Below are positions 16,988 through 28,426 of a stretch of 28,763 nt of DNA, piece after piece (positions within the stretch are counted from its first letter, which is position 1; each line of letters begins with the position of its first letter). The stretch comes from Promethearchaeota archaeon. GTDB lineage: Archaea; Asgardarchaeota; Thorarchaeia; Thorarchaeales; Thorarchaeaceae. The notes below the pieces were generated by a model, which saw only the letters and a program-made list of their open reading frames with translations, ran no database searches and was not told where the DNA came from. Made by a program: the position numbers and the translations under genes. The stretch spans positions 1 through 28,763 of the forward strand of contig JBHLOD010000001.1 of the NCBI GenBank assembly GCA_048940825.1. The letters run 5' to 3'.

Positions 16988-17539
16988 TCATGAGGTCTTC
17001 GATTCCAGTTCCGACTGCTCTTCAAGAATTCTCTTCATCTTGAAACGAAGCTGAGCCTTTAGCTTCACCCTGTCGTGGTCCAAACCAAAATAGTCCGCGA
17101 AGAGGCCGGTTGTCTTCAGCAGCTTGGTGCGACCCTCAGGAATTGCCTCTACGAATTTCTTCTCCACAAGTTCCTTGATGTGATCGTAACAATGGGTTCC
17201 CCTGTCCGCAACAAGATCTGACTGCAGAATTGGTTGCTTGAGAGCCACATAGACCAGGGTCTGAAGAGTTGCGAATGATAATAGTCCCCCTGGAATCAGT
17301 TTGGCAACCTTTGGGGTGAGCTCTGGCTTGAGCTGCAACACAAATCTCTCCCTAGGAAGCTCAACGACCTCCAGGGCTCCTTTTCGCTTATTGTAATGGT
17401 GACCAAGCTCCTCAAGCAGCCGCCTTGTAGTAGACTCGGCCTTGTCAATAATGCCCGCGAGTTCTTCTATCGAGATTGGCCTACCTACCACATACAGAGC
17501 AGCTTCGAGTTTGACCAAGTCCTCATCCACAGGCATCAC
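16988..17539 (-). CDS. scpB: SMC-Scp complex subunit ScpB (kite)
   Basis: 'LEAALYV.G.PIS..EL', 'LS.A.LQTL...A.KQPI....L...RG', '.L...KFV', 'L..TT..F..YFGL'. The true start may be 17536 (ATG) or 17530 (GTG). Confidence 0.92.
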   Translation of the reverse strand: MMPVDEDLVKLEAALYVVGRPISIEELAGIIDKAESTTRRLLEELGHHYNKRKGALEVVELPRERFVLQLKPELTPKVAKLIPGGLLSFATLQTLVYVALKQPILQSDLVADRGTHCYDHIKELVEKKFVEAIPEGRTKLLKTTGLFADYFGLDHDRVKLKAQLRFKMKRILEEQSELESKTS

Positions 17540-18256
17540 CTATCTCTCCATGGCAGGTTGTATTCCCTCAACATCATTCTCGAAGTCCTCTGGAGGCGGC
17601 GGAGATAACATCTTGACCCAGATAACCTGCTCTTTATCCATCCAGATGTCAATGAATGCTCTTGCAAAGAGATGAAGCAGAGCAAAGAAGACCCGCACAA
17701 TCTCTCTCCTGGTATTGTTCATGAGAATGTCTATGAATCTCATAGTTTCATCTATCTTCATGATCTTGGAGAGGTCATCATACACCTCCGCAATATTCTC
17801 CTCCACATCAGCTCGTGTCGTTTCAACTTGGAAGGCCAACGGGTCTGCCCTGCTACGATACCTCCTCCTTCTTGGAGTAGGACGGCTGCGAACACCTTTG
17901 CTAAGCACTCGGTCCATTGCTATCAGCAACTCTTCGAGTGTCACGCGCTGGTTGCTGATTCTGAATGGCGGACGAATCAATGGAATGACGAGGTCTTCCT
18001 CCTCATCTTCCTCAGGTGGGAGGATTCCCAATTCGATTAGCTCTCGAGTCTTCTTCATGAATATGACAGAGGCAGAGTATAGCGCACTTCCCGACACTCT
18101 GAAGTCGATATCCCCCAACCGCTTCATTTCGAGAAGGAATCCTGACACGAGCTTCCCAATGTCTACATTCCAAGGTTTGATTTTGTCTAGCTGAAGCACA
18201 TCTGTGAGAAGAATATATGGTGGAGCGGCCCAGAAGGGTATGTCATCATCGCTCAT
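17540..18256 (-). CDS. scpA: Segregation and condensation protein A (kleisin)
   Basis: 'I.PWNVDI..L...FL', 'DFRVSG.AL..AS..F.KK', 'R.VTLEELL.A', C-terminal 'V..FFALLHL.....I'. Its ATG overlaps the smc stop (ATGA). Confidence 0.9.
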   Translation of the reverse strand: MSDDDIPFWAAPPYILLTDVLQLDKIKPWNVDIGKLVSGFLLEMKRLGDIDFRVSGSALYSASVIFMKKTRELIELGILPPEEDEEEDLVIPLIRPPFRISNQRVTLEELLIAMDRVLSKGVRSRPTPRRRRYRSRADPLAFQVETTRADVEENIAEVYDDLSKIMKIDETMRFIDILMNNTRREIVRVFFALLHLFARAFIDIWMDKEQVIWVKMLSPPPPEDFENDVEGIQPAMER

Positions 18257-21200
18257 GCGGTCGCTGCCACCTCCTCTAGGTCCACAGACACAATTCTCGA
18301 AATACCATCTTGATTAGACACACCAATCAATAGATCCGCCTTTCGTACGGTAGTGTCTCTCAATGATACCACTATGAACTGCGATGATTTAGACATCTCA
18401 GAAATCAAGTTCGCAACATTGTGAGCATTGACATCGTCCAAGGCAGCATCGATCTCGTCAAAGACATAGAAGCTTGCAGGGCTGTACATCTGGACCGCGA
18501 AGATGAGTGCCAGACCAGTCAGAGTTTTCTCTCCACCGCTCATTGCATCCAAGGTCACGAGTTCCTTTCCCTGCGGCTTGGATCTGACAGTGATTCCACC
18601 CATTAGTGGATGCTCGGGGTTCTCCAGCATCAAGGTGGCCTCTCCGCCGGGAGAGAGCTTAGCAAACACCGTGGCAAAGTTGTCTGCGATATCGTTGTAG
18701 ACTTGGAGGAATTTGCGAGTCTTCTCAGCCTCAATCTCCTCCATGAACTCGATTATCTCCTTGTGTTCCTCTTCCAATCGAGTCTTCTTGTCGACAATCT
18801 CGTCGTACCTTTCTCTTTCAAGGTCATAGTCAGTCAACGCCTTGAGATTGACGGGGCCAAGTACCTCAAGCTCCCTCTCAAAGCCCTTGATCCTATCGTC
18901 AAAAGCATCAATTTCCTTGTAGGTGAGTTCTCTTTCCTTCGCCCTCTTGGCCAGCTCCTCGTTCGAGTCAGACATTTCGTTCAGCTCTGCAGTGAGCCCC
19001 ACAATATCAGTTTCGAGTCGTGATAGTTCAGTCTGTAGGCGATATACGGCCTTCTCGTTTCCGGTCTGCTCTTCTCTTATTTCCTCATGGCGCAATCTGA
19101 GATTCCGGAGCTTCTCTTTCAGTTCAAGCTGATGTACGCGCTTATCCTTCACTGCATCCTCAATCTTCTCTCTCTCAGCCTTGAGCTTGAGAAAGTCCTT
19201 CTCTTTCGTTGCCAGCTGTTCCTCAAGGAGTTTCACTTCTTCCTCTTGGCTTGGCATTACGGCGTTGAGTGACTCCAGACGATGTTCAAGCTCCACGAGC
19301 TTTGGCTTTAGTCTCTCGTCGATTGCCACCTTGAGAGAGGTCATCTCTCCCGTGAGAGCTTCACGCTCCTTATTGTGGTGTTTTAGCACTTCTTTCAAGT
19401 CTTTCAGGTACTGGCTCATCTTGGCTGTGTCTGATTTTGCTAGAGCCTCGTTGGCATCGTCGCGTTGCTCTCTCACCGTTTCTCTGTGCGCAGTGAGCTC
19501 TTCATCTCTTTCCCTCAAGCTCTCAATCTGGCTCTCCAGTTCACCTGTTGTAAGCTGTGCCTTACTGATCTTGTCCTTCAACAGGTTGATTCTGTTCTCC
19601 TTCTCTTCGAGTCGTTCCTCAAGGCTCTCTAGCTCCAGTCCTGCTCGATAATTACTCTTGGAGAGGTCTTGAATCTCTAGGTCCAGCTTGCCCTTGTCGG
19701 CGCGGAGTTGTTCCTGCTGTGCAGTAAGTCCAGATAGTATCTCCTCCAAGCCTCTGAGTTTCTTCTCAATCTCAGGACTTGTGTCTTCAACCTGAAGCGA
19801 AAGTCCCGTTGTTCCTCTATAGTAGTGTCCACCCGTGATTAGTCCGGATCTCTCGACTAGATCGCCCTCCAGAGATACTGATCTGAATCCCTTGAACCCC
19901 ATCGCCTTGGCAGTTTCGAAGTCCTCTGTGACTAGTGTGTCTGAGAACACGAACTCGAATGCCGGACGCATCTTGGAGTCAAAGGTGACAAGGTCTATTG
20001 CTAGTCCTATCACTCCCCTACCACTAGGCACCTTCTTGGGTCGTTTTGTGCTAATCTTGTTGAGTGGGATGAAGGAGGCGCGTCCAACTTTCTCAATCTT
20101 GAGGACATTCACGCATTTCGTAGCAACATCATCGTCGTCCACAACGATGTGAGAGAGTCTGTTGCCTCCAGCAATCTCCATTGCTACCGCGTACTCGGGG
20201 TCAATCTTCCCGAGCTCCGCCACTGTGCCATAGATTCCCTCAATTGTCCCCGTGTCGCGTAGTTCCAGGACCCTGCCAATGGCGCGTCTTCTCTTCAAGA
20301 ATGCCTCTTCCGCCTCTCTTAGGGCATCCTGCCTTGCCTGAACGCGAATCAACTCCTCTCTTGTGTCTTTCACAATCTTGGTTGACTCCAACACCTCCGC
20401 ATCCACAGTCTTCAGTCGACTCTCAATTGCTTCGACTTCTGTTCGCTTGCCCTTCTCAAGTTCCTCAGATTCCTGGAGTTTCCCTCTTCTTGCAGGAATG
20501 ACTTCTTGAAGGCCTGAAACCTCTTCCTCTGTCTTGGCGAGCAGTTCGTTCGAATCACGCAACTCCTCGTAAATCATTCCGAGTTCCTTGCCATCGGTCT
20601 TGATTGCCGAACGAACTTCAGAAACTCCCTCGTCGAGTGACCTCATCTGGTTGTTGAGATCCTGCAGTCGCTGGGTCAATTCGAAAGTATCAGCCTGCTC
20701 TTTCTCAATTCGTTCCTCAAGAGCAGTCATCTTGTTCTTGCAGCTTTCAATCTCACCATCCAGTCTGATGAGCTCCTGCTCCTTCTCATCCATCAGGGAG
20801 TCCGATCCACTGACCTGTTCCTGAATCGATTGAATCTCTATCTCAATTGACTCTCTTTCTCCGGCACTCTTCTCAAGCTCGACTCTTGCTCGTTCAAGGT
20901 TGCTGTTTGCATGATCCACAGCGGCCGAAATGATTCCATACTGCTCCGAGATTCTAGCAGAGTCTCCGCCTGTTATCTGATCAATCTCGGTGTCTATTTC
21001 CTCAATCTCCCCATCTGTAGTTTCAGTTGCCTGCTCCACCTCTACAAGCTCTCTGCTCAGCTGCTCCGCTTCTTCTGCTCTCTCCGCTAGGGTCTCGTGA
21101 ATGGTTTCGATTCTACTTCTTCCCTTTATTGCACGCCATGCCACACTATCAATCCGAATCTGCTTTATCTGATCATGAAGCTTCTGATAGCGAATCGCAT

Positions 21201-21843
21201 CCCCTCTCTCCTCTTCAAGCTTCTCGAGCTGGCGACGTCTTTCCTGGAGCTGCATATCTACCTTACCGAGGTTGGTTTCACTCTCTGCCAACTTCTTCAT
21301 GGCACGCTCTTTCTGCTCGTCATATGCAGAAATCCCTGCTATGTCTTCAATCAGTTTACGACGATCGCTGGGACTTACCTTTACTATCTGCGCTATCTCC
21401 CCCTGAAGAACCAGATTGTAGCCATTTGGGTCCACTCCAATCGCTCCAAGCACATCTAGAACGGCAGTCCTAGTTACAACCTTGCCGTTGATGCGGCACG
21501 TTGACTTCCCATTGTCGTCCAGTTCTCTCTCTATGACGACTCTATCTGCGTCTATCTGCAATTCTCTATCTCTATTGTCAAAATGAATCTCAACGTGTGC
21601 AGACTTGGCCTTGGGCGGCATGTCTGGTTTTGGGGGAGAATAGAGAAGATCTGAGAACACATTTGCTCTGAGTGTCTTTGCACTGAGCTGCCCGAGCACG
21701 AAGAGAACTGCATCAACAACATTGGACTTGCCCGAACCATTAGGGCCAACTATGCATGTGAAGCCAGGATTCAGTCTGATTGTGACATTGTCTCGGCCGA
21801 ATGACTTGAAGCCCTTACACACAAGCTTGTCAATGTGGACCAA
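18253..21843 (-). CDS. smc: Chromosome segregation protein SMC (condensin-type)
   Basis: Walker A 'GPNGSGKSN', Q-loop 'LQG', coiled coils, hinge 'G.YG.V.ELG...GG.RL..IVV' and 'G.L....GLITGG', signature 'MSGGEK', Walker B/D-loop 'FDEIDAALD'. Confidence 0.98.
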   Translation of the reverse strand: MVHIDKLVCKGFKSFGRDNVTIRLNPGFTCIVGPNGSGKSNVVDAVLFVLGQLSAKTLRANVFSDLLYSPPKPDMPPKAKSAHVEIHFDNRDRELQIDADRVVIERELDDNGKSTCRINGKVVTRTAVLDVLGAIGVDPNGYNLVLQGEIAQIVKVSPSDRRKLIEDIAGISAYDEQKERAMKKLAESETNLGKVDMQLQERRRQLEKLEEERGDAIRYQKLHDQIKQIRIDSVAWRAIKGRSRIETIHETLAERAEEAEQLSRELVEVEQATETTDGEIEEIDTEIDQITGGDSARISEQYGIISAAVDHANSNLERARVELEKSAGERESIEIEIQSIQEQVSGSDSLMDEKEQELIRLDGEIESCKNKMTALEERIEKEQADTFELTQRLQDLNNQMRSLDEGVSEVRSAIKTDGKELGMIYEELRDSNELLAKTEEEVSGLQEVIPARRGKLQESEELEKGKRTEVEAIESRLKTVDAEVLESTKIVKDTREELIRVQARQDALREAEEAFLKRRRAIGRVLELRDTGTIEGIYGTVAELGKIDPEYAVAMEIAGGNRLSHIVVDDDDVATKCVNVLKIEKVGRASFIPLNKISTKRPKKVPSGRGVIGLAIDLVTFDSKMRPAFEFVFSDTLVTEDFETAKAMGFKGFRSVSLEGDLVERSGLITGGHYYRGTTGLSLQVEDTSPEIEKKLRGLEEILSGLTAQQEQLRADKGKLDLEIQDLSKSNYRAGLELESLEERLEEKENRINLLKDKISKAQLTTGELESQIESLRERDEELTAHRETVREQRDDANEALAKSDTAKMSQYLKDLKEVLKHHNKEREALTGEMTSLKVAIDERLKPKLVELEHRLESLNAVMPSQEEEVKLLEEQLATKEKDFLKLKAEREKIEDAVKDKRVHQLELKEKLRNLRLRHEEIREEQTGNEKAVYRLQTELSRLETDIVGLTAELNEMSDSNEELAKRAKERELTYKEIDAFDDRIKGFERELEVLGPVNLKALTDYDLERERYDEIVDKKTRLEEEHKEIIEFMEEIEAEKTRKFLQVYNDIADNFATVFAKLSPGGEATLMLENPEHPLMGGITVRSKPQGKELVTLDAMSGGEKTLTGLALIFAVQMYSPASFYVFDEIDAALDDVNAHNVANLISEMSKSSQFIVVSLRDTTVRKADLLIGVSNQDGISRIVSVDLEEVAATA

Positions 21844-22038: not shown

Positions 22039-22404
22039 CTAGCCTATCATCGACACCAAGGCACGCTTAAGAGCCATCCTGACAAGCCCCATCGACTCGC
22101 GTGCACCCTCTCCTGCAATCCCCGCCAACACAAGTTTCACGTCGCCTAGGATTGCTATGAAGCCATTGTCAGTGGCAATTGTGACTTCCTTCAACCCTCC
22201 CTTGTCAAGTCCGCTTGCAAGCTGAGATGAATTGGCTGCAATCTTGACAGAAAGATCAGCTATGTCGGAGTGTTTGATTCCCCCAGTTATGGTATGACCG
22301 AAGATCACTTTCCCTTTCGCATCACAGACCACGATGCCTTGTAAGTCCTCATTCGCTGCCATTGTATCGGCAATAACCTGCTCAATCTTCTTCTGATCAA
22401 CCAC
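22039..22404 (-). CDS. Roadblock/LC7 domain protein (divergent)
   Basis: 'GIVVCDAKGKVI', 'L.KGGLKEVTI.T.NG.I', 'MGLVRMALKRA'. GTG start at 22404, 9 nt after GGAGG (the track starts at 22434). Confidence 0.8.
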   Translation of the reverse strand: MVDQKKIEQVIADTMAANEDLQGIVVCDAKGKVIFGHTITGGIKHSDIADLSVKIAANSSQLASGLDKGGLKEVTIATDNGFIAILGDVKLVLAGIAGEGARESMGLVRMALKRALVSMIG

Positions 22405-22577
22405 TTGATACATCCTCCGGGGATGAACTTGCACGCTATCAGACGTTTGAAGATGTCGTGTTTATATCTTATGTGTTAGTACTTTGTCCGATTTGCAGCT
22501 CCATGAGAGCACAACCGTAGCTGAGTTTTTATCCACAAAAGTGAACCATGGCCCAAGACTTTTGGAGTCGGTTATGA

Positions 22578-24209
22578 ATGCCTATGCTAAGAACTAGTTC
22601 GGAGGCTTTTCCGGCCTCCAAGAAGGTCCTTGGTGACCTTCCGTACGTCTTGCGTGTCGAGTTTGGAGACTTAGCACGCGACGTAACCAAGATTGTCGGC
22701 AAGCCCATAGCTTGCCAAAAATGCAATGGCTTTCTTCTAAGTGTAGATCAGATAAAGGACGACGACAAGGTTGGAAAACACTTCGTCTGTCCTTTCTGCG
22801 GAACACTGAACGTTATAGAAGGCGAGATTGTAGTAGCAGGTGATGACACGGACTTCGTTGTCGAAACGCCGCCCGAGAGGACCGAGGCCGACACGGACAT
22901 CATCTCGGTAGGAGGTAGGTCCTTCTTAGGACTGATTGATGTTTCTGGGTCGATGGCTGGGGCGAATCTTGCTGCGGTGAAGCGCAGTCTGAACACGTCT
23001 ATCGACAGCTTGGCCGCCAACGCACCCGACACTATGTTTGGGCTCATAGAGTTCGAGAGCTCAGTCCTGTGCAGGAATCTCGAAACCGGCGAACCCGTAG
23101 AACTCCCTCGAGAGTCTTTCATGAGCTTCGACAACATCACGGATGCAACCAAGCTTCTATTGGACCAGATTAAGCTAGTTCAGGTCGGTGAGAATGCTGA
23201 TAATCTGAAGAAACATGTCTCAGCCCTTAGAGACCAAGGAGGAACAGCTCTTGGTCCTGCTGCTGCCATGGCATATGTGATTGCCAAGCACAGGAATGTC
23301 GGTCGTATAGTGCTGCTCACAGATGGACTTGCGAATGAGGGAATTGGCGCCCTTGAAGGCTACCAGGTCACTCCTGCGGGCAGTTTCTATGAAGACCTTG
23401 GGGACAAGTTCAGGGAGCTCGGTGCTGCCGTTGACGTTGTCGGTATCGCCTCTGGTGCTGGAATGGAACTCAAGACCTTGGGTCTAATGCCTGAGGCCAC
23501 AGGAGGCACAATGTATTACGTCACACCCAATGAGCTTGATAGGAGTCTTTCTGAGCTTGCCGGAGCTGAACTACTGGGTCGTGATGTTGAGGTGAAGCTC
23601 ATCACACCCGCTGGCGTGCGCCTTAAGGATGCTTCAGGAGCCTCTAGAGCCGTACTTGACGAGCTGAGGAAGAAGGGCGGTGGCAAGATTGGGGTGGTAG
23701 GAGAAGACCACGAGCTCTACTTCGAGATTGAACCCGAGAAGAAAATCAAGGATGAAGAGGTTCCAATCCAAGTTCAGGTGGCCTATACTGATGAGGAAGG
23801 TGCCCGAAGAGTCCGTGCCGTCACGACAAAGCTGCGCGTGTCTGAGAAGGAGGACGAGATCATGAAGACCCTCGACCCAACCGTGGGTGCAACCTTTGTC
23901 ACGCAGAAGGCTGGCGAGGACGCAATCAGGGGTGAGAGATCCAAGGGCAAGAAACGCCTCGAGTCCTTCCGTTCTGCTATGAAGGCACGAACGAAGGCCG
24001 CACCTAAGGCCGTAAAGACAATGCTGGAGAAGGCCGACCGTGTTCTAGAAAGAGAGGAGGAGGAACTCGAGATTCAGGAGGCGCGAATGGCAGCCGCACC
24101 CGCAAGAGGTGCAGCCCCGTCTGCCGCCGCTGACATGTCTGCCGTAGAGAATCTAGCGCAGATGAAGAGGAGTTCGAAGAAGATCTTTGATGACGAAGAT
24201 GAAGAGTAG
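22578..24209 (+). CDS. Sec23/Sec24-like protein: zinc finger + vWA trunk + beta-sandwich + partial helical domain
   Basis: 'PIACQKC...FVCPFCGTLN' zinc finger; 'LIDVSGSM', 'GGTALGPA', 'IVLLTDGLANEGIGAL', 'FYEDLG....G.AVDV', 'TGGTMYY'; beta-sandwich 'IQVQVAYTDEEGARRVRAVT'; 'LDPTVGATFVTQKA' resembles the start of the Sec23 helical domain. Confidence 0.8.
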   Translation: MPMLRTSSEAFPASKKVLGDLPYVLRVEFGDLARDVTKIVGKPIACQKCNGFLLSVDQIKDDDKVGKHFVCPFCGTLNVIEGEIVVAGDDTDFVVETPPERTEADTDIISVGGRSFLGLIDVSGSMAGANLAAVKRSLNTSIDSLAANAPDTMFGLIEFESSVLCRNLETGEPVELPRESFMSFDNITDATKLLLDQIKLVQVGENADNLKKHVSALRDQGGTALGPAAAMAYVIAKHRNVGRIVLLTDGLANEGIGALEGYQVTPAGSFYEDLGDKFRELGAAVDVVGIASGAGMELKTLGLMPEATGGTMYYVTPNELDRSLSELAGAELLGRDVEVKLITPAGVRLKDASGASRAVLDELRKKGGGKIGVVGEDHELYFEIEPEKKIKDEEVPIQVQVAYTDEEGARRVRAVTTKLRVSEKEDEIMKTLDPTVGATFVTQKAGEDAIRGERSKGKKRLESFRSAMKARTKAAPKAVKTMLEKADRVLEREEEELEIQEARMAAAPARGAAPSAAADMSAVENLAQMKRSSKKIFDDEDEE

Positions 24210-24218
24210 TCACACGCA

Positions 24219-24256
24219 TGAGTGACGCTGACCAACCTCGCGTCACTCAGTTTTTT
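24219..24256 (+). terminator. Stem-loop plus T-tract terminator after the Sec23/24-like gene
   Basis: TGAGTGACGC (24219-28), 11-nt loop, GCGTCACTCA (24240-49), then GTTTTTT. The perfect 10-bp stem begins 9 nt after the stop codon. Confidence 0.7.
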
Positions 24257-24394
24257 CTGAACCTCGGCGTGGAATGCGCAACCTTTTGCGCAAACGAGCT
24301 ATTTTGAGACGAGAACATCATCAATAGTCTAAAATACCCAACTGCGGCGTTAGGAGTTGTCAAATGCAGATTTGACTGCAGCGGAGATTCTATA

Positions 24395-24685
24395 TTGATA
24401 AGCCAAGAGCGCCTCAAGAGCATCATCGACCGACTCAAAGCACAGGACGGTGTCCGTGGAGTCGTTGTGACTACCATGGAGGGCTTGCCCCTGAGTAGCG
24501 ATCTTGACCAAGAAACCACCGAGAATGTCGCTGCAATCATAACCTCTCTTGTGGGAAAGGCACTGGACACGGTGCGACTCCTACGGGAGGGTGCGCTGTC
24601 CTTCCTCACGCTGGACACAACACAAGGTCAAATAAACATCGCACCGGAAGAACAAGAGGGCCTGATATTAGTGGTCCTCAAGTAG
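24395..24685 (+). CDS. Roadblock/LC7 protein, dynein light chain roadblock (DYNLRB)-like
   Basis: 96 aa: 'RLKAQDGVRGVVV..MEGLPLSS.LD..TT', 'KALDTVR', 'LSFL', 'I.IAPE'. Lacks the last helix of MglB-type roadblocks. TTG start after GGAG. Confidence 0.85.
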   Translation: MISQERLKSIIDRLKAQDGVRGVVVTTMEGLPLSSDLDQETTENVAAIITSLVGKALDTVRLLREGALSFLTLDTTQGQINIAPEEQEGLILVVLK

Positions 24686-24709
24686 AACTACTGTTAAGGG
24701 GTTGTAACC

Positions 24710-25180
24710 ATGAGTGATCCAAAAGCGTTCGACAAGATCCTCACCGACATCATACGCCAGGACAAACACATCAAGAAGGTAATCCTGGTAGACAAGACTG
24801 GCTTGACCATAGCCAATGTAAGCAAGCTCTCGTATTATCCTGTGGATGTTGATTCCATCGGCGCGATTGCAAGCGCAGTGTTCTGTGCCAGTGAGGAGCA
24901 GGGCAAGAACCTCCAGATTGGTGAGCTGGAGATTGTGACCTCTGAGTTTTCAGAGGGTAAGATATTCGCTTCCGCCTGTGGGAAGGGCGTGCTCTGTGTC
25001 GTATCTGACCCTGAGGTCAACATCGGTATGGTCCGCCTGGTCATGAAGAAGCAGGGCGTACAACTTGCCGACGAGCTAGACAAGTTCTTGGCAGTGGAGC
25101 CTCTCACTCCCTCTGACAAGGACAAGGAGATTGACGAGGAAGATCTCAAGTCTGCCCTGGCAGAGCTTGAAAGAGTGTAG
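24710..25180 (+). CDS. mglB: MglB-like roadblock GTPase regulator with C-terminal acidic helix
   Basis: 'VILVDKTG', 'NIGMVRLVMKK' and C-terminal 'EIDEEDLKSAL' parallel Myxococcus MglB as I recall it ('VFLVDKNG', 'SLGLVRLRIKK', 'EMSDDDIDNLF'). Directly upstream of the MglA-like GTPase. Confidence 0.75.
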   Translation: MSDPKAFDKILTDIIRQDKHIKKVILVDKTGLTIANVSKLSYYPVDVDSIGAIASAVFCASEEQGKNLQIGELEIVTSEFSEGKIFASACGKGVLCVVSDPEVNIGMVRLVMKKQGVQLADELDKFLAVEPLTPSDKDKEIDEEDLKSALAELERV

Positions 25181-25324
25181 TTCGGGCACAAGTTTCCCCA
25201 ATGAGCCTCAATTGTGCCACAAAGGCTTTTATGAGACCACACTTTTAACACATCCACCCCCGAAGCAGGGCCTCTGGCTAGGGACCGGAAGAGCAGAAGC
25301 AGCGACGTACTGAGGTGAACAGCG

Positions 25325-25888
25325 ATTCGTAAAGACGACAAAGGGCGCATCCATCTGAAGTTGGTCTTCTATGGACCGTCTCTTGGAGGTAAGACGACTG
25401 CACTCCGATGGCTCTACGGGAAGGTCGAGGGGCTTCAGAAGGGCGAGTTCACTGCAATTGAGGATGAGACCAACCGCACGCTCTTCTTCGACTATGTACC
25501 GATGAGCGCAGGAGGGCGCGTTCTGTTTGACGTCTTCACGGTGGCAGGTCAGAAACGTCACCGACACCAGAGGAAGGTTGTACTTCAGGGGACTGATGGA
25601 ATACTGTTTGTCGCAGACTCATCACCTGATCAGAGAGATGAGAACACTGAGAGCTTCGAGGAGCTGAAGTTGTTCCTGGGCGACGCGTTGGGTCGTGAGA
25701 TTCCCATTGTCGTCATGTTGAACAAGCGTGACCTACCGAACAGGATGTCGCGCGATGAGATGCTCGACCTGCTTGGTCTTGGTGGGAATGTGCCAATCTA
25801 CGAGACCATCGCAGTCCAGGGCGTAGGAGTTAAGAGGGCGTTCCAAGCCATAGCGCGAGAAGTTATCTTGAAGAGAATGTACAAGTGA
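25325..25888 (+). CDS. mglA: MglA-type small GTPase (Ras superfamily)
   Basis: G1 'GPSLGGKTT', switch I 'NRTLFFDY' (intrinsic Arg), G3 variant 'TVAGQ', 'DGILFVADS', G4 'NKRD'. The track start at 25361 truncates beta-1. I propose ATT at 25325, 6 nt after GAGGTGA. Confidence 0.85.
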   Translation: MRKDDKGRIHLKLVFYGPSLGGKTTALRWLYGKVEGLQKGEFTAIEDETNRTLFFDYVPMSAGGRVLFDVFTVAGQKRHRHQRKVVLQGTDGILFVADSSPDQRDENTESFEELKLFLGDALGREIPIVVMLNKRDLPNRMSRDEMLDLLGLGGNVPIYETIAVQGVGVKRAFQAIAREVILKRMYK

Positions 25889-25906
25889 TATTGACAGGTG
25901 AGGCTG

Positions 25907-26278
25907 ATGTCAGAGACCCGCGGAGACACTTTGGAGGGCGTTCTTAACGAATTGCAGGGGAGTATCCCTGAGATTGAGGCCTGTGCAATAGTCAGCGTTG
26001 AAGGACTCCCGATTGTGTCAGCTTTGCCAACAGATGTCGATGAAGCAAAGGTCGCAGCGATGACAGCCGCCATGTTGACCCTTGGAGAGAAGGCTGCAAT
26101 AGAGCTCGGAAAGGGGAACTTGGAGCAGGTCAACATTAAGGGTGTAGAGGGCTGGCTACTCGTGATTCAAGCCGGAATGAACGCATGTCTCACTGTTTCC
26201 ACAACAGCTAGTGCCAAGCTTGGCATGGTCTTTCTTGAGATGAAGAGGGCGGCCGAGAAGGTTTCCCAGATGATCTAG
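25907..26278 (+). CDS. Roadblock/LC7 domain protein (canonical archaeal type)
   Basis: 'IEACAIVSVEGLPIVSALP..VDE.KVAAM.AAML.LGE.AA.EL.KG.LEQV.IKG..G', 'AKLGMVFLEMKRAAEK'. ATG at 25907 after AGGTGA. Confidence 0.9.
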   Translation: MSETRGDTLEGVLNELQGSIPEIEACAIVSVEGLPIVSALPTDVDEAKVAAMTAAMLTLGEKAAIELGKGNLEQVNIKGVEGWLLVIQAGMNACLTVSTTASAKLGMVFLEMKRAAEKVSQMI

Positions 26279-26358: not shown

Positions 26359-27126
26359 TTGAACCTGACTGGTCCTGTCTACAGGCTGTACGAGTACGTC
26401 TTGCATAGGCAGTTGCACAAAGACCAAGCTCCACGTCATGTAGGGATTATTCTTGATGGTAACCGACGCTATGCCAGACAACACGGTCTGGAAGTCCCTT
26501 GGTTCGGGCATCAAAAGGGTGCCCAAAAGGTGATGGAAGTACTCAGGATTCTGTGGGAGGCAGGAGTCAAGGTATGCACGCTTTACGCATTTTCCGTCGA
26601 GAACTTCGAGAGGAATCGCGATGAAGTAGAAGAGATAATGGCCATTGCCAGAGAGAAATTCAGTGAGGTAGTGGGAAACCCTGATGTCCACAAGCATAAG
26701 GTCCGCATCAAAGCAATTGGTCGAGTCGATTTGCTGCCTGAGGAGGTTCAACTGGCAATTGCGCAGGCAGAGACCGAAACTGAGAACTACAGCGACCACA
26801 TTCTCAATGTAGCCATCGGATATTCAGGCAGAGCAGAACTTGTGGATGCCGTACAGGCAATCGGTGAGAAGATTCGAGATGGTGAGCTAGACCCATCGAA
26901 AGTTGATGAAGAACTGATTGAAACCCACTTGTATACCAACGGGGTTCCTGATCCTGACCTCATTATCCGAACATCAGGCGAAGAGCGGCTTTCTGGGTTC
27001 CTTCTCTGGCAGTCCGCCTATTCCGAGCTCTACTTTGCCCAGATCTACTGGCCTGCTGTACGAAGAATAGACGTCTGGCGTGCTCTGCGCTCCTATGAGC
27101 GCCGCTCGCGCCGATTCGGCAAGTGA
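26359..27126 (+). CDS. uppS: cis-prenyltransferase (polyprenyl/undecaprenyl diphosphate synthase)
   Basis: 'HVGIILDGNRRYA', 'GH.KG', 'TLYAFS.ENF.R', 'DLIIRTSGE.RLSGFLLWQ.AYSELYF', C-terminal 'RRFGK'. Confidence 0.96.
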   Translation: MNLTGPVYRLYEYVLHRQLHKDQAPRHVGIILDGNRRYARQHGLEVPWFGHQKGAQKVMEVLRILWEAGVKVCTLYAFSVENFERNRDEVEEIMAIAREKFSEVVGNPDVHKHKVRIKAIGRVDLLPEEVQLAIAQAETETENYSDHILNVAIGYSGRAELVDAVQAIGEKIRDGELDPSKVDEELIETHLYTNGVPDPDLIIRTSGEERLSGFLLWQSAYSELYFAQIYWPAVRRIDVWRALRSYERRSRRFGK

Positions 27127-27166: not shown

Positions 27167-28426
27167 GTGGTGACACAGTCTTTTATATTGGCAAACCATG
27201 TCTTCGAGTCTGTTCAGGAGATCATTGCATTGGCCCGAAAGCCAATTGATGTATACCGTGGTCTGATTAACACCGGCATATCCGCAGAGATTGCTCCACA
27301 CATCGATGCAGTCGTAGAAAGGTACTCTGACCATGAGTTTGCAGAACTGAAGCTTTCCCACCATCTGAAACGATTCATTGACATCTGGTCAAAACACGTC
27401 GCACATCTGAATCAACGTGGTTCCGTAGAAATCCCAGACCTTACTGCAGCAATTGACCTGCTTGACTACTTCACATCCACATCAAAGTGGTGGGTCTTGT
27501 CTAGAGATGACCCGGGGCTTGTACTTAGACCCGCTTCTAGAGATCCTCGCAACTTCCTCAAGTCATTGCCACTCATCAACATTGGACAGGGCGCCTCGGG
27601 AAGAGTATCCGGGGCTGCGGAGAAGCTCTCGAGTTTCCTGAAAGAACACAATCTTGGAGCGACGGAATCGCGCATAGACCTACGTCAGCACATCGTTTCT
27701 GTTTGGCTACTACTCAGTGCCTTTGTGTGCAAGAGTCAAGGACGCAGCACTACTGAGGAAGCAGACTTCGAAACAGCGTATGACATTGTACGTGTGTTGT
27801 TCTTCTATACGCCCAAGGATGACTTCCTGGCACTTACTGCGGTACGTCAGATTGCCACGAACCCAACCTTGGCCAAGGCTGCAGAGATCAATTTCGCACG
27901 CGGTTTCGACCGCAAACTCGATTCGTCATTGGCAGCACGACTTGAACGATCTCATGGAGAGTATCTTACCAAGATTGTCAAGTTGACGCCTAGCGCATCT
28001 AGAAGCATTCTTACAAACTCACTTAGAGTCTTGGCACAGCTACAGGCATTGAAGCTGGGTATGAATCGAGTCGAGGCTGATGAGTATGATTCTGTGATAG
28101 TAGGAGCGATGAGTCTACTAGACAAAATAGAGGTTCCTTCAGCCCTGCTTCACGAACAGTCCAAGGTCCTTGAACTATTCAAGAGTCTACAGCCTGCGGA
28201 AGGGGTAGAGGAGAAAATGGCACTTATGAGAAGAAGGATTGAAGGACTCTTGGTAGATTCAACAGGTAACAGAGACTTCTTGCTACAGTTTGCCAAGTTG
28301 ATTCCAAGAATCACAGCATTGCTGCTGCTGCTTGCAGGTGGAACAAAGACTCAACACGGAGACCGACTGCAAGACGCTGATGTGAAAAGAGGCCTAATCC
28401 TACTCAATAGGCTGCTCAATGAGTAG
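27167..28426 (+). CDS. Hypothetical all-helical protein, apparently four ~105-aa AAA+-lid-like repeats
   Basis: Long 419-aa ORF with no stronger competing frame. Recurring '(R/G)..V...D...A..LL'-type helix ends at about aa 91, 200, 305 and 405. No Walker motifs. Confidence 0.7.
   Translation: MVTQSFILANHVFESVQEIIALARKPIDVYRGLINTGISAEIAPHIDAVVERYSDHEFAELKLSHHLKRFIDIWSKHVAHLNQRGSVEIPDLTAAIDLLDYFTSTSKWWVLSRDDPGLVLRPASRDPRNFLKSLPLINIGQGASGRVSGAAEKLSSFLKEHNLGATESRIDLRQHIVSVWLLLSAFVCKSQGRSTTEEADFETAYDIVRVLFFYTPKDDFLALTAVRQIATNPTLAKAAEINFARGFDRKLDSSLAARLERSHGEYLTKIVKLTPSASRSILTNSLRVLAQLQALKLGMNRVEADEYDSVIVGAMSLLDKIEVPSALLHEQSKVLELFKSLQPAEGVEEKMALMRRRIEGLLVDSTGNRDFLLQFAKLIPRITALLLLLAGGTKTQHGDRLQDADVKRGLILLNRLLNE

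Follow-up and report, generated by a model that had tools for sequence, protein, structure and literature searches.

The locus examined here raises the question of whether a Sec23/24-like gene that stands among four Roadblock genes and an MglA-type GTPase gene is a working part of the system encoded by those genes or a neighbour of separate standing. It lies in a stretch of 28,763 nucleotides (nt) from Promethearchaeota archaeon (Thorarchaeia; assembly GCA_048940825.1, contig JBHLOD010000001.1, positions 1-28,763), which was analysed at its full length and is called the window below. An earlier interpretation made from the letters of the window alone (the sequence-only reading) had proposed a single proto-coat or polarity system, in which the MglA-type GTPase is controlled by a hetero-oligomer of Roadblock proteins and, in its GTP form, recruits the Sec23/24-like protein to serve as effector or adaptor, and an intrinsic Arg of the GTPase replaces the Arg finger carried by the gelsolin domain of Sec23. 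One half of this proposal held, as the Roadblock and GTPase genes are a conserved module whose gene order was found in at least seven other Asgard families, whereas the Sec23-like gene did not prove to be an integral effector or adaptor, being unlinked or deleted in other genomes and equipped with transcription signals of its own. We consider it probable that the locus combines a real, ancient MglA/Roadblock module with a separately signalled, lineage-specific Sec23-like neighbour.

All six genes were recovered by open reading frames (ORFs), Pfam and PDB matches at the places from which they had first been read. They are listed below with their coordinates, strand, identity and evidence, where RB denotes a Roadblock paralog, A1 the alignment of Sec23-like proteins, and A2 the alignment of 20 GTPase orthologs. 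The module is abbreviated as RB1<>RB2-RB3-MglA-RB4, with <> for a divergent pair.

22039..22434, minus strand: RB1, divergent Roadblock/LC7 paralog (PDB 9jq8 match and conserved position)
22578..24209, plus strand: Sec23/24-like protein, 543 amino acids (aa) (Pfam, A1 invariants, Foldseek, VIA-align)
24395..24685, plus strand: RB2, short Roadblock of dynein-LC7/DYNLRB type, 96 aa (Pfam, PDB matches)
24710..25180, plus strand: RB3, MglB-like Roadblock, 156 aa (Pfam, PDB MglB chains)
25325..25888, plus strand: MglA-family small GTPase, 187 aa if the start is ATT 25325 (PDB MglA, A2 invariants)
25898..26278, plus strand: RB4, full-length Roadblock (Pfam, PDB matches)

Synteny of the module with and without the Sec23-like gene

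Gene order was compared between the family of the window (f1, Thorarchaeota) and other Asgard families (other f-numbers; G-numbers denote genomes). In a genome of f2 from the same order (G025) and in one of f12 (G035), an identical block from ScpB to UPPS was found in which RB1 is directly divergent from RB2, with the Sec23-like gene located on other contigs; the module is therefore older than its linkage to that gene. The array RB2-RB3-GTPase-RB4 also occurs in f13, f7, f4, and f8, in genomes that gave no Sec23-like match, and RB1 orthologs were found at the equivalent position in f1, f2, f12, f4, and f8. RB1 reads away from the Sec23-like gene in the window and is divergent from RB2 in genomes that lack the insertion. 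Orthologs of the GTPase (E-value 1e-40 or better) were present in 38 of 41 relatives, with 99% identity across the genus. RB1-RB4 and the MglA-type GTPase thus form one genuine conserved module; the binding and GTPase-activating protein (GAP) roles given to its members in what follows are putative.

The Sec23-like gene has a different distribution. It was found in 24 of the 41 relatives (82-97% identity across the genus), single-copy per genome in most of them, and in 147 of 400 genomes of the phylum, spread over 12 families. Since the protein tree tracks taxonomy (f1, then f2, f12, and f20), the gene must be older than its position in the cluster and vertically inherited. It is linked to the module in f1 only, and unlinked in f2, f12, f20, f21, f27, f32, and most of f9 and f26. 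Conservation of the linkage across lineages having both parts, which the sequence-only reading would lead one to expect, was accordingly confined to f1, and genomes outside this family showed the lack of linkage that the same reading had named as the first half of what would speak against it. A pre-existing, vertically inherited Sec23-like gene would then have been translocated into the divergent RB1/RB2 spacer in the ancestor of one Thorarchaeota family.

Within f1, the order ScpB-ScpA-SMC-RB1<>Sec23-like-RB2-RB3-GTPase-RB4-UPPS-ORF419 was found in all 17 genera checked. The linkage says little about the Sec23-like gene specifically, because the whole block is colinear from SMC-ScpAB through UPPS. 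The flanking genes in the window are as follows.

16988-17539, minus strand: ScpB (Pfam, synteny)
17540-18256, minus strand: ScpA (Pfam, synteny)
18253-21843, minus strand: SMC (Pfam, synteny)
26359..27126, plus strand: cis-prenyltransferase of UPPS type (Pfam Prenyltransf 257 bits, synteny)

UPPS lies downstream of RB4 in f1, f2, f12, f13, f4, and f8. As separate observations on the flanks, ScpB-ScpA-SMC adjoins RB1 in three families (f1, f2, and f12), even where SMC identity is 33%, and the 419-aa ORF located 3' of UPPS (27167-28426) has no Pfam match yet is syntenic family-wide at 45-75% identity.

Natural variants were found inside f1 in which the module occurs without the inserted gene. 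In G018 (96% complete), a clean deletion of about 1.6 kb has removed the start and 1,579 of the 1,662 nt of the Sec23-like gene and left the last 83 nt in place; the flanks are 96% identical to those of a gene-bearing congener, the four Roadblock genes and the GTPase gene are intact, and the GTPase is 97% identical to that of the window. In G019, the ScpB-to-UPPS block shows RB1<>RB2 with no insertion, and a divergent Sec23-like copy is found on another contig. Horizontal gene transfer as the origin of this unlinked copy was rejected, as it nests inside the family clade. In G392 (98% complete), colinearity ends about 60 nt upstream of RB2, and a genome-wide search for a Sec23-like match found none. 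In all three genomes, the whole cluster or at least RB2-RB4 remained intact. The apparent absence of the gene in G365 and G341 was rejected as a loss, because contig ends account for it.

Unrelated genes were found inside the cluster in other genomes, namely a CLC channel, a methyltransferase with TetR, an arrestin/Vps26-like protein, TnpB, and a Zn-ribbon protein; the cluster spacers therefore accept passengers. The arrestin-N/C (Vps26-like) gene, seen in one genus, lies between RB3 and the GTPase gene (G357; L079, 6041-7087) and is a second trafficking-type eukaryotic-signature fold in the cluster. A further variant concerns G004, where the RB1/Sec23-like junction occurs twice on a single contig, about 330 kb apart (L032 and L033), by rearrangement or misassembly: one copy comprises the full Sec23-like gene and a partial RB1 match, and the other the first 180 aa of the Sec23-like protein, RB1, and a partial SMC match.

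Transcription signals and the contexts of the Sec23-like gene elsewhere

Between the Sec23-like gene and RB2, the following elements were found.

24220..24256, plus strand: terminator-like hairpin (24220-24248; 9-bp perfect stem GAGTGACGC / GCGTCACTC, 11-nt loop) followed by T6 (24251-24256)
24285..24294, no strand assigned: perfect palindrome TTTGCGCAAA, candidate operator of the RB2 operon, about 100 nt upstream of RB2
24326..24337, plus strand: TATA-box-like AGTCTAAAATAC, putative promoter, about 58 nt upstream of the RB2 start

The hairpin was read from the sequence directly, as the automatic terminator scan, with a loop limit of 8 nt, had missed it; the promoter and terminator scan uses a sigma-70 model, which does not apply to archaeal promoters. 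With the hairpin and its T6 present, the terminator that had been noted between the Sec23-like gene and the downstream operon was recovered, and a run of at least five T within 84 nt past the Sec23-like stop was seen at 9 of 26 family loci. The palindrome is the sole WWTGCGCAWW match within the 28.7-kb window, and the spacer between RB1 and the Sec23-like gene has none. Its TGCGCAA core lies upstream of RB2 in nearly all family loci, including those of G019 and G018, where there is no Sec23-like gene. The TATA-box-like element has one exact match only in the window, and (A/C)TCT(A/C)AAATA is conserved upstream of RB2 family-wide, irrespective of the Sec23-like gene. Further downstream, at 24383-24386, lies a GGAG, 8 nt before the RB2 start. 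RB2-RB4 would be driven from this promoter region with its palindrome and TATA-like box. With a hairpin and T-run behind the Sec23-like gene and a conserved palindrome and TATA-like box before RB2, the Sec23-like gene is probably a separate transcription unit, with no visible operator shared with the RB2 operon. In three sediment RNA runs, the Sec23-like gene, the spacer, RB2, RB3, and the GTPase gene were covered by only a few metatranscriptome pieces of 151 nt (depth 2-6), one of which (24168-24318) crosses the stop and the hairpin; DNA carry-over is possible for these pieces, and they are too sparse for operon structure.

The surroundings of the Sec23-like gene outside f1 were inspected in about 22 genus-level contexts. 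No conserved neighbour was found among them, GTPases included; the neighbours comprised transporters, an iron-type alcohol dehydrogenase (Fe-ADH), a hexapeptide transferase, a beta-lactamase-fold protein, PadR, and an enoyl-CoA hydratase. A GTPase or Roadblock gene was found within 1.3 kb in 4 of the contexts, where about 1.8 were expected by chance (Poisson P(>=4) about 0.1; estimated from 33-103 Ras-superfamily matches and about 15 Roadblock matches per sampled genome), and the excess is suggestive at most. In one genus, the neighbour is a Ras-type GTPase 0.75-1.25 kb upstream of the Sec23-like gene, and in G167 a Roadblock-domain protein is encoded two genes away.

Several results weigh against treating the Sec23-like gene as a separate neighbour and favour the single system proposed earlier. 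Linkage in 17 of 17 f1 genera would also fit selection for linkage. The relocated copy in G019 forms the longest branch in the family, so that constraint may have shifted after it left the locus. In G193, a member of another family (L067, 7261-9752), a GTPase of the MglA superfamily with a coiled-coil tail is encoded 33 bp upstream of the Sec23-like gene on the same strand, and in G160 (L057, 7580-9897) a 180-aa Roadblock is encoded 213 bp upstream, again on the same strand; these two adjacencies belong to unrelated Asgard families, each a singleton among the sampled genomes, and they count, together with the Ras-type neighbour mentioned above, as independent instances. Finally, a GTPase with an intrinsic Arg is found alongside a Sec23-like protein that lacks gelsolin. 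Against the single system stand the intact and highly conserved state of the module in genomes that lack the Sec23-like gene, have deleted it, or carry it elsewhere, the reach of f1 synteny to SMC-ScpAB and UPPS, by which retention of any neighbour is unspecific, the separate terminator-like and promoter elements with no palindrome in the RB1/Sec23-like spacer, the near-chance frequency of GTPase and Roadblock neighbours outside f1, and the unrelated insertions in the same cluster. A complex prediction for the Sec23-like protein (A1) and the GTPase (A2) with GTP and Mg returned a score of 0.01, against a mark of 0.32, and weighs neither way. The Sec23-like protein may be coupled to the module, but this is unsupported and we place its probability low, and the single system as a whole appears quite unlikely. 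No paper describing linkage of a Sec23-like gene to an MglA/Roadblock cluster was found in a literature search.

Fold and candidate roles of the Sec23/24-like protein

The Sec23-like protein matched Pfam Sec23_trunk above the cut-off (41.8 bits), Sec23_BS just short of it (32.3 bits against a cut-off of 33.5), and zf-Sec23_Sec24 weakly (18 bits). Its domain order comprises N-terminal strands, a Cys4 zinc finger, a vWA trunk, a beta-sandwich, a helical domain, an Ala/Pro linker, and an acidic tail. The zinc-finger residues C46, C49, C71, and C74 are invariant in A1 and align with the zinc finger of Sec24, N-terminal to the trunk, and a complete metal ion-dependent adhesion site (MIDAS; D121, S123, S125, T223, D249) is likewise invariant, whereas yeast Sec24 keeps only the DxSxS part. 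An AlphaFold2 (AF2) model built with 12 homologs (predicted local distance difference test (pLDDT) 82, predicted template modelling score (pTM) 0.84) was searched against the PDB with Foldseek, and the top 46 matches were all Sec23 or Sec24; VIA-align of the model to Sec24 and Sec23 gave Z scores of 25-29 over about 490 residues (28.7 with 485-497 residues aligned). The gelsolin domain, the bearer of the Arg finger in Sec23, is absent as the sequence-only reading had stated, since the alignment spans residues 8..630 of Sec23 and nothing but a short tail follows the helical region of the protein. In sequence the protein is closer to Sec24, which the A1 profile matched at an E-value of 1.6e-10, and one homolog carries the existing annotation 'SEC24 family transport protein'. 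The C-terminus (residues about 505-543; 24090-24209) was noted separately, as it consists of a conserved tail, LAQMKRSSKK-F-DE-acidic, behind the Ala/Pro-rich linker, in which F537 is invariant and M529, S532, and S533 are nearly so; it may be a short binding motif and is the sole remnant in the deletion scar of G018.

Resemblance to COPII raises the possibility of a role as inner-coat subunit of a proto-COPII whose GTPase, of Arf/Sar type, is encoded elsewhere, so that the position in the MglA cluster would be incidental. The strands, Zn finger, vWA trunk, beta-sandwich, and helical domain follow in the same order as in Sec23/Sec24, the fold matches at the Z scores given above, each searched genome carries 33-103 Ras-superfamily genes, and GTP-dependent binding of an Asgard Arf to yeast Sec23 has been published (PMC11914678). 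The same study, in which gelsolin-less Asgard Sec23-like proteins were already described, reported that three of them showed weak binding to that Arf, independent of nucleotide, and that these proteins lack the residues that contact Sar1 as well as gelsolin (PMC11914678). There is moreover no conserved GTPase neighbour over the about 22 contexts, and the intact MIDAS is typical of adhesive vWA domains. Unlike COPII, the locus has one gene rather than a Sec23/Sec24 pair, no gelsolin and hence no Sec23 Arg finger, a complete MIDAS, and an adjoining GTPase of MglA type rather than Sar1/Arf. We judge the inner-coat role to be very unlikely. It seems nearly as improbable that Thorarchaeota captured the Sec23/24-core protein as an effector or adaptor of MglA-GTP, with a Roadblock dimer as GAP and the Arg supplied by the GTPase itself, which would make it a gelsolin-independent forerunner of COPII. 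A primitive vesicle-coat machine does not follow from the position of the gene alone.

A further comparison is offered by ArnA/ArnB of Sulfolobus (8s05), to which the model aligns with Z 24.9 over 366 residues and which shares the vWA, beta-sandwich, and helical core and, on its partner, a Zn-ribbon. The PDB title of 8s05 describes ArnAB as orthologous, in archaea, to the Sec23/24 core motif, and according to the ArnAB paper, Sec23/24 have the domain arrangement of ArnB (PMC12852372). Together with the MIDAS residues invariant in A1, these data would allow the protein to act as a regulatory scaffold like ArnB, whose Zn-ribbon, vWA-MIDAS, beta-sandwich, and helical parts bind phosphorylated or acidic partners with no GTPase involved. 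This is unlikely: no FHA, kinase, or phosphatase gene adjoined the Sec23-like gene in the contexts examined, sequence profiles match Sec24 and not ArnB, and the Zn-ribbon belongs to the same chain, as it does in Sec23/24, instead of residing with the FHA domain on a separate subunit, ArnA, as in ArnAB. For the separate neighbour that we favour, the protein would most likely serve as an adaptor that binds proteins in a metal-dependent manner, comparable to the ArnB/Sec24 core, with a partner that the neighbourhood does not reveal.

The GTPase, its Roadblock proteins and the meaning of the module

The best PDB match of the GTPase is MglA (E-value 1.8e-36; Arf 1e-11). In its P-loop, GPSLGGKTT, residues G17, G22, K23, T24, and T25 are invariant across A2. 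The switch-I motif NRTLFFD aligns with TDRTLFFD of MglA, in which R53/T54 correspond to R51-T52 of the present protein, and both of these are invariant in the 20 orthologs; the proposal that the GTPase has its own Arg of the MglA type was thereby upheld. The G3 motif TVAGQ aligns with TVPGQ of MglA (Thr for Asp), where T72 and G75 are invariant and Q76 occurs in at least 90% of A2 rows, and N133-K134-x-D136 (NKxD) is invariant. The place and identity of the GTPase stood as first read; its start probably did not. The ORF list begins the gene at TTG 25361, and no ATG, GTG, or TTG lies between the upstream TGA at 25316 and the middle of strand beta1. The conserved N-terminus is x-RKDDKGRIHLKLVFYGP, and the codon at -18 before YGP is ATG, GTG, or TTG in orthologs and ATT (25325) in the genus of the window. 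Because orthologs place ATG, GTG, or TTG at that codon, the non-canonical ATT 25325 is most likely the start, rather than TTG 25361.

The GTPase gene is flanked by RB3 upstream and RB4 downstream. A Roadblock domain was recognised in all four paralogs, above the Pfam cut-off in RB2, RB3, and RB4 and through 9jq8 in RB1. The matches of RB1 to Robl_LC7 (19 bits) and LAMTOR5 (17.8 bits) are both below the cut-off, and its match to PDB 9jq8 ('Roadblock/LC7 domain protein') has an E-value of 7.7e-8. RB2 matched Robl_LC7 with 55.8 bits; its closest PDB entry is 7f8f (E-value 2.9e-25), followed by the eukaryotic dynein light chain roadblock DYNLRB1 (E-value 4e-12), in agreement with its earlier description as DYNLRB-like. 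RB3 matched Robl_LC7 (36.2 bits) and MAPKK1_Int (25.8 bits), carries an acidic helical extension of about 40 aa at its C-terminus, and has chains of MglB as its top PDB matches (E-value 2.4e-5), which bears out the label MglB-like. RB4 matched Robl_LC7 with 58.9 bits and the Roadblock/LC7-domain proteins 7f8m (E-value 6.4e-23) and 9jue (E-value 4.5e-17). Pairwise identity among RB1-RB4 is 18-27%, and the four are therefore distinct subtypes and not recent duplicates, just as the sequence-only reading had it. A literature search on the PDB codes 9JUE, 9JQ8, 7F8M, and 7F8F gave chance matches only. In G035 (L038, 9789-10495), the RB3 ortholog lies in two overlapping frames, for which a frameshift, an assembly error, or an intron is possible.

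The closest comparison is with MglA/MglB of Myxococcus xanthus and Thermus thermophilus, with the accessory proteins MglC and RomY. As there, the GTPase has an intrinsic Arg-Thr, TxxGQ for DxxGQ, and NKxD, and a Roadblock gene matching MglB adjoins it. Unlike that system, there are four Roadblock paralogs in fixed order instead of one MglB, RB2 belongs to the dynein-LC7 type, and the organism is an archaeon with no motility genes nearby; GAP activity is putative. Ragulator (LAMTOR1-5) with its Rag GTPases is similar in that several differing Roadblock-fold subunits are encoded beside a small GTPase, with weak Pfam matches of RB3 to MAPKK1_Int/LAMTOR3 and of RB2 to LAMTOR5; it differs in that the GTPase here is an MglA-type single-domain protein rather than a Rag with a C-terminal Roadblock domain, and no anchor resembling LAMTOR1 was seen. 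Judged by family membership, the most likely mode of action of the module is that of MglA/MglB, with additional Roadblock subunits. The GTPase, with its own catalytic Arg and Gln as in bacterial MglA, would cycle between GTP and GDP under the control of a Roadblock dimer. The MglB-like RB3 would be the likeliest GAP subunit, maybe paired with another paralog, and the remaining Roadblocks could serve as co-GAP, as subunits resembling guanine nucleotide exchange factors (GEFs), or as scaffold, comparable to MglB/MglC/RomY or to the Roadblock pairs of Ragulator.

If the Sec23-like protein did work with this GTPase, archaea would have their first case of a GTPase paired with an inner-coat-like protein, with a direct bearing on the origin of COPII; given the comparative evidence, such a pairing is unlikely to follow from position by itself. 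Whether the module depends on the Sec23-like gene can be judged in the genomes that carry the deletion and relocation variants. What gives the locus lasting value is that one MglA-type GTPase and a matched, fixed set of four Roadblock proteins have stayed together, deeply conserved, in archaeal relatives of eukaryotes, which makes the module a tractable case for the origin of multi-Roadblock GTPase regulators such as Ragulator and MglB/MglC.

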